From Escherichia coli (lineage in GTDB: Bacteria > Pseudomonadota > Gammaproteobacteria > Enterobacterales > Enterobacteriaceae), in assembly GCF_011045215.1 (NCBI RefSeq), contig NZ_CP049201.1: DNA of 64,000 bases. One strand, given 5' to 3'. Made by a program: the position numbers and the translations under genes. Below are positions 4,746-35,851 of this stretch, in pieces; the first letter of the stretch is position 1, and the number at the start of each line of letters is the position of its first letter. The notes beneath the pieces are model-generated. The model saw only the letters and a list, made by a program, of their open reading frames with translations, did no database searches and had not been told where the DNA came from.

Positions 4746-4788
4746 TCCATTTCACTCCAGACCCTAACTTCAGCTCCTGCAAAATCGC

Positions 4789-4806
4789 AAGGTAAACGTT
4801 TGCCTT
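4789..4806 (-). promoter_or_regulatory. PUR box (purR operator O1 in 5' leader)
   Basis: AAGGTAAACGTTTGCCTT, near-palindromic PUR-box core 44-61 nt upstream of purR ATG. Confidence 0.55.
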
Positions 4807-5043
4807 TACACACCTTACGCACAACAAAAGTGTTGCGGTACGCCGGAAAAACGACACGGAGCGTCAGGAAGGGGTCAATGGCCAGTACGCAAATAGTGTA
4901 AGCGTGGAATTTTGGCCGATCTTGACGAAAAGGGGAAGTGGTAAAAACACTTATCATTATAAATGACGGGAGATTTTTTCATCACAGTGTGTAAAAATGC
5001 GTAATATCACTTTTTGTGTGGTAATAAAAAAGGAGAAAACTTG

Positions 5044-5133
5044 ATGAGCACCGACCTTAAATTTTCACTGGTAACAACGATTATCGTCCTCGGTTTGATC
5101 GTGGCCGTGGGTTTGACTGCCGCGCTGCACTGA
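5044..5133 (+). CDS. ynhF: 29-aa small membrane protein YnhF
   Basis: ATG..TGA ORF translated by hand: MSTDLKFSLVTTIIVLGLIVAVGLTAALH; hydrophobic single TM; location purR-ydhP matches known ynhF. Confidence 0.8.
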   Translation: MSTDLKFSLVTTIIVLGLIVAVGLTAALH

Positions 5134-5298
5134 TTTCCTCTCGAGGGAGCGCGTTCTCCCTCGCATCTCCTTCCTGTTTGTTAGCAAAATGGCAAAAGTG
5201 TTTTCTCTTTTTGTTATTTTCATTTTTTTGTGATTGCTGTCATGCTTTCGCCACTTTAATGAATATCGCGTAATGACGCGAAGAGGTGGAGATAAGGC

Positions 5299-6613: not shown

Positions 6614-7195
6614 TTATGCAGCGAGATTTTTCGCTACGAATTCCCAGTTCACCAGCGCCCAGAAGTGCTCAAGATAGCCAGGACGTGCATTGCGATAGTC
6701 GATGTAATATGCGTGTTCCCAGACATCAACGGTTAGCAGCGGAGTCGCATCGGTGGTCAGCGGAGTACCCGCGTTAGAGGTTGAAACGATAGCCAGTTTG
6801 CCATCGCTGTTTTTCACCAGCCAGGTCCAGCCAGAACCAAAGTTTTTGATCGCTGCATCAGTAAACTGAGCTTTGAAATCGGCAAAGCTGCCAAAAGATG
6901 CGGCGATAGCTTCAGCGACTTTTCCAGTCGGTTCGCCACCGGCGTTCGGTGCCAGGCAGTTCCAGTAGAAAGTATGGTTCCAGACCTGAGCTGCGTTGTT
7001 GAATACGCCACCTTCAGAGCTGCGAATAATCTCTTCCAGTGATTTACCTTCAAACGCGGTACCTTTGATCAGGTTGTTCAGGTTAGTGACATAAGTCTGA
7101 TGATGCTTGCCGTAGTGATACTCGATGGTTTCCGCAGAAATATGCGGTGCCAGAGCATCTTTAGCATATGGTAGTGCAGGTAATTCGAATGACAT
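6614..7195 (-). CDS. sodB: iron superoxide dismutase
   Basis: 193-aa [39 protein letters not shown], recognised as SodB. Confidence 0.97.
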
Positions 7196-7322: not shown

Positions 7323-8150
7323 TTAGCGAAGTGTTTTTGGGGTCATTACCCGGCGAGCGCCAACGTAGTGGCGCTGCCAGTAGTCTTCACTGAGAGAAGT
7401 GATTTGAATTTCCTGACCCGTACGCGGTGACTGAATAAATTTGCCGTTGCCGACATACACACCGACATGATCGGCTGTACCGCGTCCCTGAGTACGGAAA
7501 AAGACCAGGTCGCCGTTTTTCAGTTCACTACGTTCGATTGGCGCTGCATCACGCAGGTGATACATTTCATTCGCCGTACGCGGAATACGAATTTTTACCA
7601 AATCTTTATAAGCGTAATAAACCAGGCCGCTGCAATCAAAACCGGTACGCGGTGAGCTGCCACCCCAACGATATGGCTTACCAATTTGCTGCATCAGTTT
7701 ATTCATTGCCACTTTTGTGGCTTTTTGCACCTTCGCTTTGTGTGCGTCGGCAAGGGTTCCTGACGCGGCATTTTTGACTTTCACACAATGCGATTTATAG
7801 CCCTTACGTTTGGTACACTTTTCGGTAAAGCTGGCTGAGGCCGTTTTATTGACGGTATGTTTGCTGCGAGTTTTGGCGTTTTTAGAAGCGGTAATGGAAG
7901 ATTTTTTAACGGAAGAAGCGGTTTTGCTTTTGGTCGTACTTTTACTGGCGGCTTTTTTCGCTGTTTTCTGGCTGGCTTTCTGGGTCTTTTTGGTGGTTGC
8001 CGTGCTTTTCTTTTTATCTGCTTTTTTGGTGATATGAGTGGTAGCAGAACTCTCCCTGGCTTGCTTTGAAGCATGGGCCATAGGCGTTAAAGGCAGGGTG
8101 GTAAAAAGTAAAGCACAGAGCGTGATCGAAATACGGTTTATCCGCGCCAC
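7323..8150 (-). CDS. mepH: NlpC/P60 peptidoglycan DD-endopeptidase MepH
   Basis: 275-aa ORF (GTG start) with signal peptide, K/T/S-rich linker and C-terminal NlpC/P60 domain (GFDCSGLV); matches YdhO/MepH. Confidence 0.9.
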   Translation of the reverse strand: MARINRISITLCALLFTTLPLTPMAHASKQARESSATTHITKKADKKKSTATTKKTQKASQKTAKKAASKSTTKSKTASSVKKSSITASKNAKTRSKHTVNKTASASFTEKCTKRKGYKSHCVKVKNAASGTLADAHKAKVQKATKVAMNKLMQQIGKPYRWGGSSPRTGFDCSGLVYYAYKDLVKIRIPRTANEMYHLRDAAPIERSELKNGDLVFFRTQGRGTADHVGVYVGNGKFIQSPRTGQEIQITSLSEDYWQRHYVGARRVMTPKTLR

Positions 8151-8484
8151 TGAGCGTCCCTCTGTTAAGGCAGGTCTATCATGCCTGCGTCTGATTTACA
8201 AAACTTGATGATTCTAATGCATAGAAGAAGAGAAAGTTAATAGCTTTTATTGTTAAAAAATACGTTTCGTTGGCGAGCGCAAAAAAATGCAGCAGTGAAA
8301 GCTAAAAATGGTTATAAATACGCCAGTTTGCCGTGCATCAGGGAAGAAACGAATATTTGAAATGCAACAAATAGAGCAAAGGGATAAAATAGCAAAAGCG
8401 TGATGAAAATGTTATTTTCCGATGCCGCACTGACCCGCTACAATGTCAGATTACTGCCGTAAAGAAGTTTGAGGAAGCAAGACA

Positions 8485-8832
8485 ATGAGCACCACTATCG
8501 AAAAAATCCAACGCCAGATTGCTGAAAACCCGATCCTGCTGTACATGAAAGGTTCACCGAAACTGCCGAGCTGCGGTTTCTCTGCCCAGGCAGTACAGGC
8601 GCTTGCCGCATGTGGCGAACGTTTTGCCTATGTTGATATTCTGCAGAATCCGGACATTCGTGCGGAGCTGCCGAAATATGCTAACTGGCCGACCTTCCCG
8701 CAACTGTGGGTTGACGGCGAACTGGTCGGCGGTTGTGATATTGTGATCGAAATGTATCAGCGTGGCGAACTGCAGCAGCTGATCAAAGAAACTGCCGCTA
8801 AATACAAGTCTGAAGAGCCGGACGCGGAATAA
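8485..8832 (+). CDS. grxD: monothiol glutaredoxin Grx4
   Basis: 115-aa ORF with CGFS motif (PSCGFSAQ). Confidence 0.95.
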   Translation: MSTTIEKIQRQIAENPILLYMKGSPKLPSCGFSAQAVQALAACGERFAYVDILQNPDIRAELPKYANWPTFPQLWVDGELVGGCDIVIEMYQRGELQQLIKETAAKYKSEEPDAE

Positions 8833-8882: not shown

Positions 8883-11800
8883 CTATCCCCAATCCAGCCC
8901 TTGTGGCGAACTTGAAAATCCCGCCTCACGCAGCAGCGTAAACATCGGCGTTTGCCGGACCGGTAGATCATTCACTTCTGTTAGCGTAAAGCGCAGCCGT
9001 GGTTCGCGACGCAGTGCGGTAGTCAGCGCGTGGAAAACCTCTGGGGCGAGTAATTCCTCTTTTTCCTGCCAGACCAGCATTTTTTTGCCACCTTGCGCCA
9101 GATAGAGTAACAATTTGCCGCCAGAAACGACCACCAGCGCACCCGCCCGACGCGTTGGTACCAGCGTTGCCGGATGTGCAGGCCAGGGCAGAAGATTTCC
9201 CCACACATTAGCCGGATCGTTGGCGGAGAGCGCCACTGGTGTATAGTGGCGCGTTTGCGCGGCTTGTGTCGCCAGGTCGCGCAAGCGGTCAATAGTCAGA
9301 CGTTCAGCGAATTGCGCGCCACCCAGACCTTCTACAAAACGACCTCGCATAATTCGCCCGGAGTCTTCCATACTTCGACAAAGCGTTTGCATCGATGGAA
9401 ACCCGCCAGGGATATTTTCGGCTATCACCGCCTGACGACTGATGATGCCGTAGCGGTCGAGCATATTTTCCGCCAGCGCCAGCATCCTTTCGGTATCGTT
9501 TAGTGGCTCCACCTGCAATAACGACCAGCGTCCAGCCAGATTTGGTGTGTTGTAAGATACCCGCGGCGAGACGGGTTGTGCATAGACAGGACGCCCACGA
9601 CGAGCCCGGTGACTGCGGCGAGTTGAGGTGCGTGCGTTGGAACTGCTGCGGGTGAGGGCGCGTAACGGTGCCCAAATATCGCTGGTGATGACGCCTTGCC
9701 AGACCAGCGCCCATAACGCCTCTTGCAGTGCCGAGGGATCAACCGATTCGCCGATTTTGTCGCGTATCCGTTGGCTGATTTGTTGTGCAAACCAGGCTCC
9801 TCCGTCAGCCAGAACAGCGACTATCGCTTGTTGCAGCGCCGAACGATTCGCCTGATCCGCTTCGGCGGGAGTGAACGATTCTGCAGCATATTCCTGTAGA
9901 TGCAGTGCCACCAGGCCGTCATCTTCACCCAGTTTTTTTTGCCCCGACCAGATAACCGCACCGGTTGCCAGTAATTCATCGAGCATTTCTGGCGAATAGT
10001 CGCGTACGCGGGCAGGCAGGATCTGGCTTTCCCAGAGTGAGGCGGGTAAGCCGACTCCGGCAAGCTGTTCGATTACCCGCATCACGCCATCTACGCCCTC
10101 ATAAACGCCTGGCGATGTTGAGGCAAAGAGCGCCGGGCTACCATCGGTGGCGGGTAATACGCCCTGACGTTCCAGCAGCAATCGCGCATAGGTCGTGGCT
10201 GCAACGGGACGCGTCGCTTCTCTGGCGGCTTGCAGCGAGCGCAAACGCAGACGACGAAATACTTCATCGCTCACCCAGATGTCTTGTTGCAGATTCATCA
10301 CCAGACCCTGTTCGCGCAGTTGCTGAAGCTGCTCTTCGACAATGGCAATACCGAGACTAAACTCATGAGCCAGTTGTTCAGCCGTGACCAGAGCATGAGC
10401 CCGGAGATAGCGCAGAAAGAGGTCGCGAAGCGGGTAACTGACTCTATGCAAATAAATCTCTGGCAGAGACTCTGGTAGTTGTACGCCGAGGGCATCGCGC
10501 AGCCTGGCGGCATCATCCATACAGGCAAGACGCTCCTGTCCGCTAATCATCGCCGGGAAGATTCGTTTTACTGTAAGAAGATTTTCCAGATACGACGCAA
10601 TCTCTTCACTGCTGCCTGTATGCCGTTGCGCCAGGTCTTCAACGGTCATTGGCCCCAGTTCGCGCAGCAGGTCGAACAATCCTTCTTCACCTTTCGCTCT
10701 TCTGCCAGGAGCCAGTCGTTGCAACTCTTCTTCCACCTGGCGAATGACCTGCGGGTCGAGTAATTCCCCGGATCGACCTGTCCGAGTAGATTGCGCAGTA
10801 ACTCGCTGTCCAGCGACAGTACGGATGCCCGGCGCTCTGCCAGCGGGGCGTCGCTCTGGTACATAAATTCCGCGACATAGCCGAACAATAAACTTGTGGC
10901 GAAAGGCGAGGGCGTAGTAGTCGTTACATCGGATATTTGAATTTCGCCACCGTTCAGGCGACGCATCAAACGTTCCAGTGCGGGAAGATCATAAACATCT
11001 TGCAGACATTCGCGTAGGGTTTCGAGAATGACCGGAAAATCCGGATATCCCTGAGCGATTTCCAGCAACTGACTGGCGCGCAGCCGTTGTTGCCAGAGCG
11101 GGGTGCGATGGCCCGGCGTGCGGCCCGGCATTAATAACGCCCGCGCGGCGCATTCGCGAAAACGGGCGGCGAAAAGTGCTGAGCTGCCTACCGCCTCGCG
11201 GACAATTTGCAGCAACTTTTCTGGTTCAAACAAAAAAATCGCGGCGTCGGGCAATTTACCATCAGTGTCAGGAATGCGCGCAACAATGCCGTCATCACTG
11301 GCGACCACAGACGCGTCAGCGCCCCATAGCGCATGTATTCGCCCGGCAATCGCCAGCGCCCAGGGTTCATGCACCCGTCTTCCATAGGGAGAGTGCAAAA
11401 TAATACGCCAGTCGCCAATTTCATCACGGCACCGTTCGAGGACCAGATGACGACTCCCCGGAACGATGCCCGTCGCGTTGCGCTGCTCGTCAATCAACCC
11501 CTGAATATTGGCGATCGTATTTTCTTCAGCCAGCCACGGGGGAATAGTCCCGGAAAAGAACGCGCCATCCGCCAGTAAATGAAGAAAATCGCCGATCATC
11601 TCGCCTAATTCAGCCGGACGTCCGTTACCTTCACCACGCCAGAAGGGGAGCCGGGCAGAACGACCCGGAGCAGGAGTCACAATCACCTGATCGCGGGTGA
11701 TTTGCTGTATCCGCCATGAGGTAGCGCCGAGAGTGATAATGTCGTTCACCCGCGACTCATATACCATCTCCTCATCCAGTTCACCCACCCGCCGCGAACC

Positions 11801-13498
11801 GGCCTGTTCTTCACCTTCGGGTAATAACACGCTATACATGCCACGATCCGGAATGGTGCCACCGCTGGTAACCGCCAACAGCTGAGCGCCAGGTCGGGCG
11901 GTCAATATCCCGGTCTCCCTGTTCCAGACCAGTTTTGGTCGAAAAGCAGAAAAATCGCCAGAGGGATAGCGCCCGGAAAGCATATCCAGCGTGGCGTCAA
12001 AAACACGTCTTGGCAGATCTTTCCACGGTGCGGCACGGCGTACGCGGGAGTACCATTCGTCTACCTGTAATGCATCCATCGCCGCGGCGGCAACGGTTTG
12101 CTGCGCAAGGACGTCGAGTGGATTATGCGGAGGTGTCAGGTTTTCCAGCCTGCCTGCGAACATACACTCTACAATGACTGCGGAATCGACTAAGTCACGC
12201 CGGGTTCGGGGGAAAAAAAGCCCTTTGGAGATACCTCCTACCTGGTGTCCGGCACGTCCAATGCGTTGTAACCCACTGGCAACAGAAAGCGGCGTTGCCA
12301 CCTGAATCACCAGATCCACCGCGCCCATATCAATCCCCAGTTCGAGACTGGAAGTTGCGACCACGCAGCGTAATTCACCCGATTTCAGCGCCTGTTCGGT
12401 GATTGCTCGTTGTTCTTTAGAGACGGAGCCGTGGTGTGAGCGGGCAATAAAAACGTCGCTACTTTGTACACGGTTAGAGGTTGCGCCGGAGGTCGACTCG
12501 AAATGGGCCACATCAACGGCGATAGAAGGGGAACGCTGTAAGCGTGCGGCGTAAAGCTCATTTAATCGTGCCGTCAGTTTTTCCGCCAGCCCCCGCGAAT
12601 TAGTAAAGACAATGGTCGAGCGATGGCGCAACACTTCATCAAGGATACCCGTTTCAATATATGGCCAGATGGAGCCTTCCCGGCCGGCATGGCTGTCTTC
12701 GCCAGTGCCGCTGGCGACCGATGAGACATCATCCATATTGGCGACCGGTACGACAATCCGTATCTGCGGATAGCGCATTGCGGGTGGGTTGACTACCGTA
12801 ACCGGGCGATCGCCGCCAAGAAATGCTGCCACATCGCTGGCTGAGCGCACAGTGGCAGAAAGGCCAATTCGCTGTGCTGAGGTGTGGAGCAGCGCATCGA
12901 GCCGCTCCAGACTTAACGCCAGATGCGCGCCACGTTTACTGCCCGCTACCGCGTGGACTTCATCAATAATTACCGTTTCGACGCCGCGTAGCGTTTCGCG
13001 CGCGCGGGAGGTCAGCATCAGATAGAGTGATTCGGGTGTGGTGATCAGAATATCCGGCGGATTACGGGTGAGTTTGCTGCGTTCCTGTGCAGGCGTATCG
13101 CCAGTACGGATCCCCACGCGAAGATTGACTTCCGTTTCGCCGCGCCGCCGCCGTTCATCGGCAATACCCTTCAACGGGATCTGCAAGTTGCGCTGAACGT
13201 CGGTGCCCAGGGCTTTTATCGGTGAAATATAGAGAATGCGTGAGGTTTTACGCTTATGCGCCTCGCGGGTATCTTCGCCGCCTTCGCGGAAGAGCCGATC
13301 GAGGGCGTAGAGAAATGCTGCCAGCGTTTTCCCGGAGCCGGTCGGTGCAATCACCAGCGCATGTTCGCCTCGCGCCGCCACATGCCAGGTTTGCGACTGG
13401 ACAGCGGTCGGCTGTTTAAAGGCGCTAAGAAACCAGTCGCGGGTCGCCGGTGAAAACACGTCCGGCAGGGGCGATGAAAGGTTTGGATTATCTGCCAT
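8883..13498 (-). pseudogene. lhr: lhr (large ATP-dependent helicase-related protein) disrupted by -1 frameshift
   Basis: Two overlapping ORFs (950 aa at 10646..13498; 617 aa at 8883..10736) in different frames; total span 4616 nt is one nt short of the 4617 needed for 1538 aa + stop; frame change maps to C4 run at 10756-10759 (GATCCGGGG on coding strand). Confidence 0.8.

Positions 13499-33442: not shown

Positions 33443-35851
<2,409 letters not shown>

Follow-up and report, generated by a model that had tools for sequence, protein, structure and literature searches.

The Escherichia coli lipoprotein MepS (Spr), a DD-endopeptidase paralogous to MepH, has a short N-terminal segment. Its NlpC/P60 domain, represented by several structures (PDB 2K1G, 7V6S, and 8XUD), is of the same kind as that of MepH, to which it aligns over residues ~150-270 with E = 2e-20. 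In the literature, both enzymes are described as cleaving cross-links redundantly and as being under the control of Prc/NlpI (PMC11211486; PMC8996183); MepH is named as one of three redundantly essential, cross-link-cleaving DD-endopeptidases (PMC11211486; PMC8996183), and the K-12 enzyme is reported to cleave D-Ala-mDAP (4-3) cross-links (PMC11211486). Prc/NlpI proteolysis degrades MepH and controls its levels (PMC8996183). The NlpC/P60 chains in the PDB that were found by sequence search, MepS among them, align to MepH residues ~130-270 only, and these matches being confined to the domain, MepS offers no counterpart of the ~85-residue linker or of the Cys-loop that precede it in MepH; no solved MepH structure is present among the PDB sequence matches.

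Among the proteins closest to the one described here is K-12 MepH/YdhO (WP_000101193.1; UniRef MEPH_ECOLI, 271 aa), which is encoded at the same grxD-mepH-sodB locus and has an identical signal peptide, Cys-loop, and NlpC/P60 domain, but is without the residues Q57-K58-A59-S60 (12 nt); as set out below, the K-12 state is the derived one. Deletions between short, close direct repeats are a classic product of RecA-independent replication slippage in E. coli, and it is with the familiar lacI-type slippage deletions that the mepH site is most readily compared: the deleted mepH segment resembles these in being bounded by a direct repeat (perfect, of 7 nt, with a spacing of 12 nt) of which one copy is retained, and in its in-frame product, whereas the mechanism at mepH is read only from its footprint, in a region where such repeats are expected by chance.

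The gene considered here lies in a 64,000-nt stretch of E. coli DNA (contig NZ_CP049201.1 of assembly GCF_011045215.1), referred to throughout as the window. The reading that is favored, at a probability of roughly 0.9, is that the window carries an ancestral long allele of mepH, that K-12-type alleles were shortened by a microhomology deletion, that both alleles are frequent in E. coli, and that the difference between them is most likely neutral.

Identity and Organization of the mepH Locus

The assignment of the window protein as the MepH/YdhO orthologue draws on identity, synteny, and domain content, all of which agree. The protein is nearly identical to K-12 MepH over its full length (one substitution and a 4-aa indel), it possesses the expected catalytic domain (Table 1), and the gene order of the window, namely sodB (6614..7195, minus), mepH, grxD (8485..8832, plus), and lhr (from 8883, minus), agrees with the order lhr / grxD / mepH / sodB / ydhP of the K-12 annotation. 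The GTG start is that given by RefSeq for mepH in other strains, and a megablast search of 5,426 complete E. coli genomes with the ORF gave matches in 5,425, where the gene is annotated as mepH, at 97-99.9% identity. A MepH-specific model is absent from NCBIfam, where the best match is the MepS equivalog, under its cut-off. Given the identical catalytic domain, D-Ala-mDAP endopeptidase activity is predicted for the window enzyme; its signal peptide, which is conserved across MepH orthologues, would be cleaved after AHA and before S.

Among the complete E. coli genomes searched, one of the 5,426 gave no mepH match whatsoever, and in another, TUM2805 (NZ_CP128950.1), the last 116 nt of mepH are all that matches, next to the labels 'endopeptidase' and 'grxD'. 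Both cases are consistent with rare natural truncation or loss of mepH, in line with the redundancy of the enzymes.

Table 1. Features of mepH and of the reading frames that overlap it (window positions).
Feature	Position	Strand	Description	Source
mepH (ydhO) CDS, long allele	7323..8150	minus	275 aa, GTG start; peptidoglycan DD-endopeptidase MepH	ORF list
Signal peptide	8070..8150	minus	residues 1-27, MARINRISITLCALLFTTLPLTPMAHA then S; hydrophobic core, AHA before S	
Low-complexity Lys/Thr/Ser/Ala-rich linker	7818..8069	minus	residues 28-111; predicted disordered	
Cys-loop, C112-x2-RKG-x4-C122	7785..7817	minus	joins linker to catalytic domain	10-orthologue alignment
NlpC/P60 (C40) catalytic domain	7350..7682	minus	residues 157-267	Pfam PF00877, 125.8 bits, cut-off 23
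12-nt block CCAGAAAGCCAG	7972..7983	minus	Q57-K58-A59-S60; gene nt 168-179; missing from K-12-type alleles	DNA and protein alignments
Direct repeat copy 1, CCAGAAA	7977..7983	minus	gene nt 168-174; outgroups are without this copy and read AATAAA	
Direct repeat copy 2, CCAGAAA	7965..7971	minus	gene nt 180-186; K-12-type alleles keep a single copy	
Alternative-frame ORF (+1 frame of mepH), judged spurious	7781..8074	minus	97 aa	
Antisense ORF, judged spurious	7810..8037	plus	75 aa; stop in two Escherichia outgroups; 71 aa in K-12	
Antisense ORF, judged spurious	7857..8069	plus	70 aa; start codon lost in two outgroups; 66 aa in K-12	

The Linker and the Cys-Loop

The stretch separating the signal peptide from the catalytic domain is strongly skewed in composition: lysine, threonine, serine, and alanine together account for 72% of the amino acids at residues 28-150 and for 85% at residues 41-107, and the codons of residues 28-150 have 41% A and 14% T on the coding strand. 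The linker is barely alignable among 10 orthologues and accounts for their total lengths of 247-295 aa; residues 132-275 are nearly invariant across genera in the same alignment. The amino-acid differences among the E. coli MepH alleles compared all fall in residues 6-107, with the exception of Q246R. An AlphaFold2 model, which was computed from a shallow alignment of 10 sequences and is of low confidence (mean pLDDT 52.9), was used for its disorder pattern alone; it gives a pLDDT of 28-32 for residues 21-100 and of 38 for residues 101-110, has no secondary structure before residue 109, and continues after the linker with a hairpin at residues 109-125 (at the Cys-loop), a long helix at residues 133-156, and the NlpC/P60 fold. 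The search of the PDB returned no match over the linker save one low-complexity alignment. A flexible, basic, disordered spacer is the best-supported description of this region.

The Cys-loop is more constant, in that C112, R115, K116, and C122 are invariant in the 10 orthologues and the motif is doubled in Enterobacter, Klebsiella, and Raoultella. It may be a disulfide-bonded element.

A Four-Residue Length Difference at a Short Direct Repeat

A preliminary inspection of the window (the sequence-only reading) had set the 275-aa ORF against 271 aa for K-12 MepH and had placed the extra residues most likely in the linker, for example at the segment TQKASQKTAKK. Both points are borne out. The mepH gene of the K-12 substrain HMS174 is 816 nt long and encodes 271 aa, not 275 aa with an identical linker, and protein alignment opens a single gap, QKAS, at window residues 57-60, within the quoted segment. 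Q57-K58-A59-S60 is the sole length difference, the window reading T56-Q-K-A-S-Q-K-T63 where K-12 reads T-Q-K-T, and beyond the indel there is one substitution, T99A. At the nucleotide level, the placement of the 12-nt block is ambiguous within 7965..7983 owing to the repeat described below, an interval that lies inside the range singled out at the outset (7790..8060), and the removal of any 12-nt frame within 7965..7983 yields the K-12 sequence. Chance is no issue for this difference, which is a fixed sequence fact in thousands of genomes. Alleles closer to that of the window are on record: the 275-aa MepH WP_000101186.1 (RefSeq; e.g., O157:H7 strain TR01) is identical to the window protein in amino acids and its gene differs by 6 synonymous nucleotides, while the nearest DNA match, from strain PapM-32-1, differs at 1 nt and 1 aa.

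Long alleles have the sequence GAC-CCAGAAA-GCCAG-CCAGAAA-ACA at this site, with perfect 7-nt copies of CCAGAAA 12 nt apart, of which short alleles have one; the adjacent 12-nt units agree at 8 of 12 positions. On mepH, Tandem Repeats Finder reported no tandem repeat at a minimum score of 30, nor did it report any across the whole window at a score of 50, and a general repeat search gave two short direct repeats in the region, neither of them the CCAGAAA 7-mer pair. As one or more perfect 7-mers recur within 30 nt in 96% of linkers with shuffled codons, such repeats are expected by chance in a linker of this composition, and the CCAGAAA repeat is thus compatible with slippage yet no proof of it. 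The real linker has three further short repeat pairs, at which the genomes sampled have no indels. One of these three is a 9-nt in-frame direct repeat, ACCGCTTCT, on the coding strand (7884..7892 and 7914..7922, 30 nt spacing), which is a potential slippage site, with no length variant there among the genomes sampled.

The characterization of the length change as repeat-driven and in frame, which the sequence-only reading had offered, holds in part: the change is in frame and occurs with a short 7-nt repeat, but the repeat amounts to microhomology and there is no tandem array. What is expected of a short-direct-repeat deletion is present, namely a block flanked by a repeat of which one copy is left and a short form that is derived; neither the head-to-tail array nor the multiple copy-number alleles of a VNTR-type tract were found. 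Because Tandem Repeats Finder returned nothing, two length states are seen, and a 3-unit allele was not found, the mepH length change is a microhomology deletion and not a VNTR.

Allele Frequencies and Ancestral State

Allele frequencies were estimated with a 125-nt junction query, which matches 5,393 complete E. coli genomes. BLAST aligned short alleles to this query over 90% of its length with a small gap, and the alleles were therefore told apart by identity bands and row spans. The long junction is present at ≥99% identity and full length in at least 1,818 of the 5,393 genomes, a count that is a lower bound, and among evenly spaced rows of the junction matches the long allele occurs in 21 of 60. 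Whole-gene spans from 39 rows were 828 nt in 14 cases, 816 nt in 24, and 823 nt in one. The long allele accordingly makes up about 35% of E. coli (a sampling estimate) and the short allele about 65%. In ~100 evenly spaced rows there was no third length state, the spans being 828 and 816 nt only, plus one frameshifted assembly, and a synthetic query for a 3-unit allele gave no full-length, high-identity match among the 5,393 genomes. At the protein level, the exact 275-aa window sequence occurs on at least 1,000 contigs under the label 'MULTISPECIES: peptidoglycan DD-endopeptidase MepH' (RefSeq/UniRef), and 15 of the 15 members listed for its 90% protein cluster are of 271 or 275 aa. The long mepH allele is common, ordinary, and already in the databases.

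The single 823-nt gene, from FCI5, is annotated as 'frameshifted' and has a 5-nt gap and three substitutions exactly at the CCAGAAA site; an error of sequencing or assembly within a low-complexity stretch is the most likely cause, rather than a third allele.

For the polarity of the difference, species-representative genomes, one for each species, were searched with a degenerate DNA pattern that encodes the conserved peptide GFDCSGLVYYAYKDLVKIRIPRTANEMY; 11 loci were returned. These include E. albertii, E. whittamii, and the representative of a third Escherichia species (deposited as 'E. coli SCPM-O-B-8794'), as well as Salmonella arizonae, Intestinirhabdus, Enterobacter, Klebsiella, and Raoultella; E. 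fergusonii, E. marmotae, and Salmonella enterica subsp. enterica are not among the 11 loci by name. The long form, ...[S/N/T]-N-K-A-S-Q-K-T..., is found in all three Escherichia outgroups (275 aa in E. albertii and 276 aa in E. whittamii), whose DNA at the site reads AAT AAA GCC AG[CT] CAG AAA and hence is without the first CCAGAAA copy. The MepH of Salmonella arizonae also has 275 aa, with a linker too diverged for site-by-site alignment. Since three Escherichia outgroup species carry it, the long form is ancestral; on these alignments, the window has the ancestral-length, 275-aa mepH, and the 271-aa K-12-type gene is derived from it by an in-frame 12-nt (QKAS) deletion. The earlier wording, in which the window linker is longer than that of K-12, is literally true, but taken as a lengthening it inverts the polarity: with the outgroups long, it is K-12 that was shortened. 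After the split of E. coli from its sister species, a change of AAT to CAG, together with ACC in the preceding codon, created the CCAGAAA repeat; slipped-strand mispairing or a short-homology deletion between the CCAGAAA copies would then have removed one unit.

Haplotype Context of the Two Alleles

In an alignment of 2.1 kb around mepH from 24 hand-picked E. coli genomes and outgroups, the short allele lies on at least three local haplotypes, which are of the K-12/A/B1 type, the O157:H7 type, and the B2 type. Each of them has a similar long counterpart: O111:H8 and 2013C-4225 for the first, O157:H7 TR01 for the second, and SCU-485, FDAARGOS_536, and others for the third. By the four-gamete test, 13 of the 25 informative SNPs within 400 nt (52%, in a small, hand-picked sample) conflict with the indel; one SNP reaches a value as high as that of the indel, and most sites remain below 25%. 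The four-gamete and haplotype pattern fits either recurrent deletion or recombination.

Competing Explanations

Several other accounts of the origin of the 12-nt difference have been weighed. The chance that it is a sequencing or assembly artifact of the low-complexity region is negligible: A-rich, low-complexity sequence is admittedly error-prone, the FCI5 junction is garbled, and the neighboring lhr of the window bears a homopolymer frameshift, but the identical long junction recurs in the at least 1,818 complete genomes counted above, which many laboratories produced on a variety of platforms, 12 nt is an exact multiple of three, and the long form is common to the outgroup species. A gain of four residues in the window strain by tandem duplication or expansion of 12 nt, with the K-12 length as the ancestral one, is suggested by the likeness of the adjacent units, whose 8 of 12 matching positions include the perfect 7-mer, as in a diverged duplication. 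Such a gain is nonetheless highly improbable in view of the long form of the three Escherichia outgroup species, in which, moreover, the first unit (AATAAAGCCAG[CT]) is no copy of the second, so that the long form is older than the repeat; the 275-aa MepH of Salmonella arizonae, not alignable in the linker site by site, speaks in the same direction. The third account, prompted by the comparison with rsxC in the sequence-only reading, is that of a hypermutable VNTR or contingency-locus tract undergoing frequent, reversible changes of length. It would sit well with a short allele on at least three backgrounds, each with a near-identical long counterpart, and with the incompatibility of the indel with 13 of 25 SNPs, matched by one SNP where most are below 25%; it is very unlikely all the same, as there is no array by Tandem Repeats Finder, only two length states occur in ~100 genomes, no 3-unit allele appears in 5,393, the in-frame unit allows no on/off switching, the single repeat copy left after deletion makes exact reversion unexpected, and the sole odd length (FCI5, 823 nt) looks like an assembly error.

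With a microhomology deletion from an ancestral long allele as the preferred reading, a subordinate question, carrying only a shade less than even weight, is whether a single deletion was spread by homologous recombination or the deletion originated repeatedly and independently at the same microhomology. Recombination is favored by the mosaic nature of the locus, where the B1-type long alleles (O111:H8) share the K-12-type short haplotype downstream and differ from it upstream, and by several SNPs that are themselves 30-50% incompatible. Recurrence is favored by the SNPs nearest the indel, which are not K-12-like in B2-type short alleles (T at nt ~111, A at nt 295) or in O157-type short alleles (T/A at nt 294/295), so that any imported tract with the K-12 junction would, for each of them, have to measure less than ~180-330 nt. 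The four-gamete result, for its part, comes from 24 hand-picked sequences, with the intermediate frequency of the indel inflating incompatibility, and no haplotype pair differing by the indel alone was found, O157:H7 TR01 and F8492 being separated by at least 10 other sites in 2 kb. Recurrent deletion and recombinational spread of the short allele stand at roughly even odds. It is quite another matter, and decidedly improbable, that CCAGAAA is a hotspot of at least three independent deletions on which selection for linker length (through Prc/NlpI turnover or sacculus reach), not drift, has acted. Equally improbable is the related view that linker length is functionally tuned, be it for how far the enzyme reaches through the periplasm, for its binding to peptidoglycan, or for its susceptibility to Prc/NlpI proteolysis, and that selection keeps both alleles. 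The intermediate frequency of both alleles in several phylogroup-type backgrounds, the control of MepH levels by Prc/NlpI (PMC8996183), and the third-codon-position excess among variable sites (9:13:30; see below), which places the linker under some purifying selection, are in its favor; but a difference of four among ~85 disordered residues is slight next to orthologues of 247-295 aa with unalignable linkers, the genome matches listed show no apparent link to host or pathotype, and the MepH literature examined mentions neither a function of the linker nor its length polymorphism. Judging from allele frequency and linker variability, a 4-residue change in this spacer is probably neutral or harmless, and nothing here suggests an effect of it on the redundancy of MepH or on its control by Prc/NlpI.

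Overlapping Reading Frames and Annotation

The 4-aa difference had also been said to generate two spurious ORFs that overlap the linker, 7781..8074 and 7810..8037. Both do exist, together with a third at 7857..8069, and all are best regarded as spurious, but they are not generated by the difference, in that K-12 has all three (Table 1), each 4 aa shorter. Across gene nt ~80-330, four of the six frames are free of stops; the linker ORFs are open because of the T-poor coding strand (14% T), stop codons needing T on the sense strand and A on the antisense strand. Variable sites within Escherichia are distributed 9:13:30 over mepH codon positions 1:2:3, which marks mepH as the constrained frame. 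All three overlapping ORFs are, by this evidence, judged spurious.

The 97-aa ORF in the +1 frame, being open in all Escherichia, was considered as a real overlapping gene. It was rejected, as its most variable position is its codon position 2 and its openness follows from the 14% T.

For annotation, the consequence is that a 275-aa MepH is no oddity of the window strain, the long form being ancestral and very common and K-12 a shortened reference, and a false lead is thereby removed. In K-12-based annotation or comparison, the 271/275-aa difference is to be taken as benign and the three overlapping ORFs are to be ignored. At most, the mepH site could be cited as a small natural example of how microhomology leads to an in-frame deletion within a disordered linker in the periplasm.

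Observations on the Neighborhood

The neighboring lhr gene (8883..13498, minus) is broken in the window into ORFs of 950 aa (10646..13498) and 617 aa (8883..10736) that overlap each other, with a frameshift near 10769. Compared with the intact, 4,617-nt lhr of PapM-32-1, it differs by one SNP and by the loss of one G from a run of five (GGGGG to GGGG), and by nothing else; the frameshift is either a recent pseudogenization or a homopolymer sequencing error. In several strains with B2-type haplotypes (8 loci), lhr is deleted, the order there being rnt, then pseudogene remnants labeled 'endonuclease' and 'ATP-dependent helicase', then grxD; this deletion and the mepH indel, ~700 nt away, do not co-segregate. 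In the 334-nt mepH-grxD intergenic region, at a place corresponding to window ~8250..8400, a 50-aa 'hypothetical protein', WP_001299740.1, is annotated by RefSeq in some genomes and not in others.

Farther away, rsxC (33443..35281, minus) is a 612-aa ORF with a visibly reiterated C-terminal region rich in Ala, Lys, Gln, and Glu; K-12 RsxC is presumably about 740 aa. Finally, the enterobacterial sRNA STnc550 is found at 4746..5136 on the plus strand, where it matches the full-length model with 396 bits and constitutes the sole match above an Rfam gathering threshold in the window.
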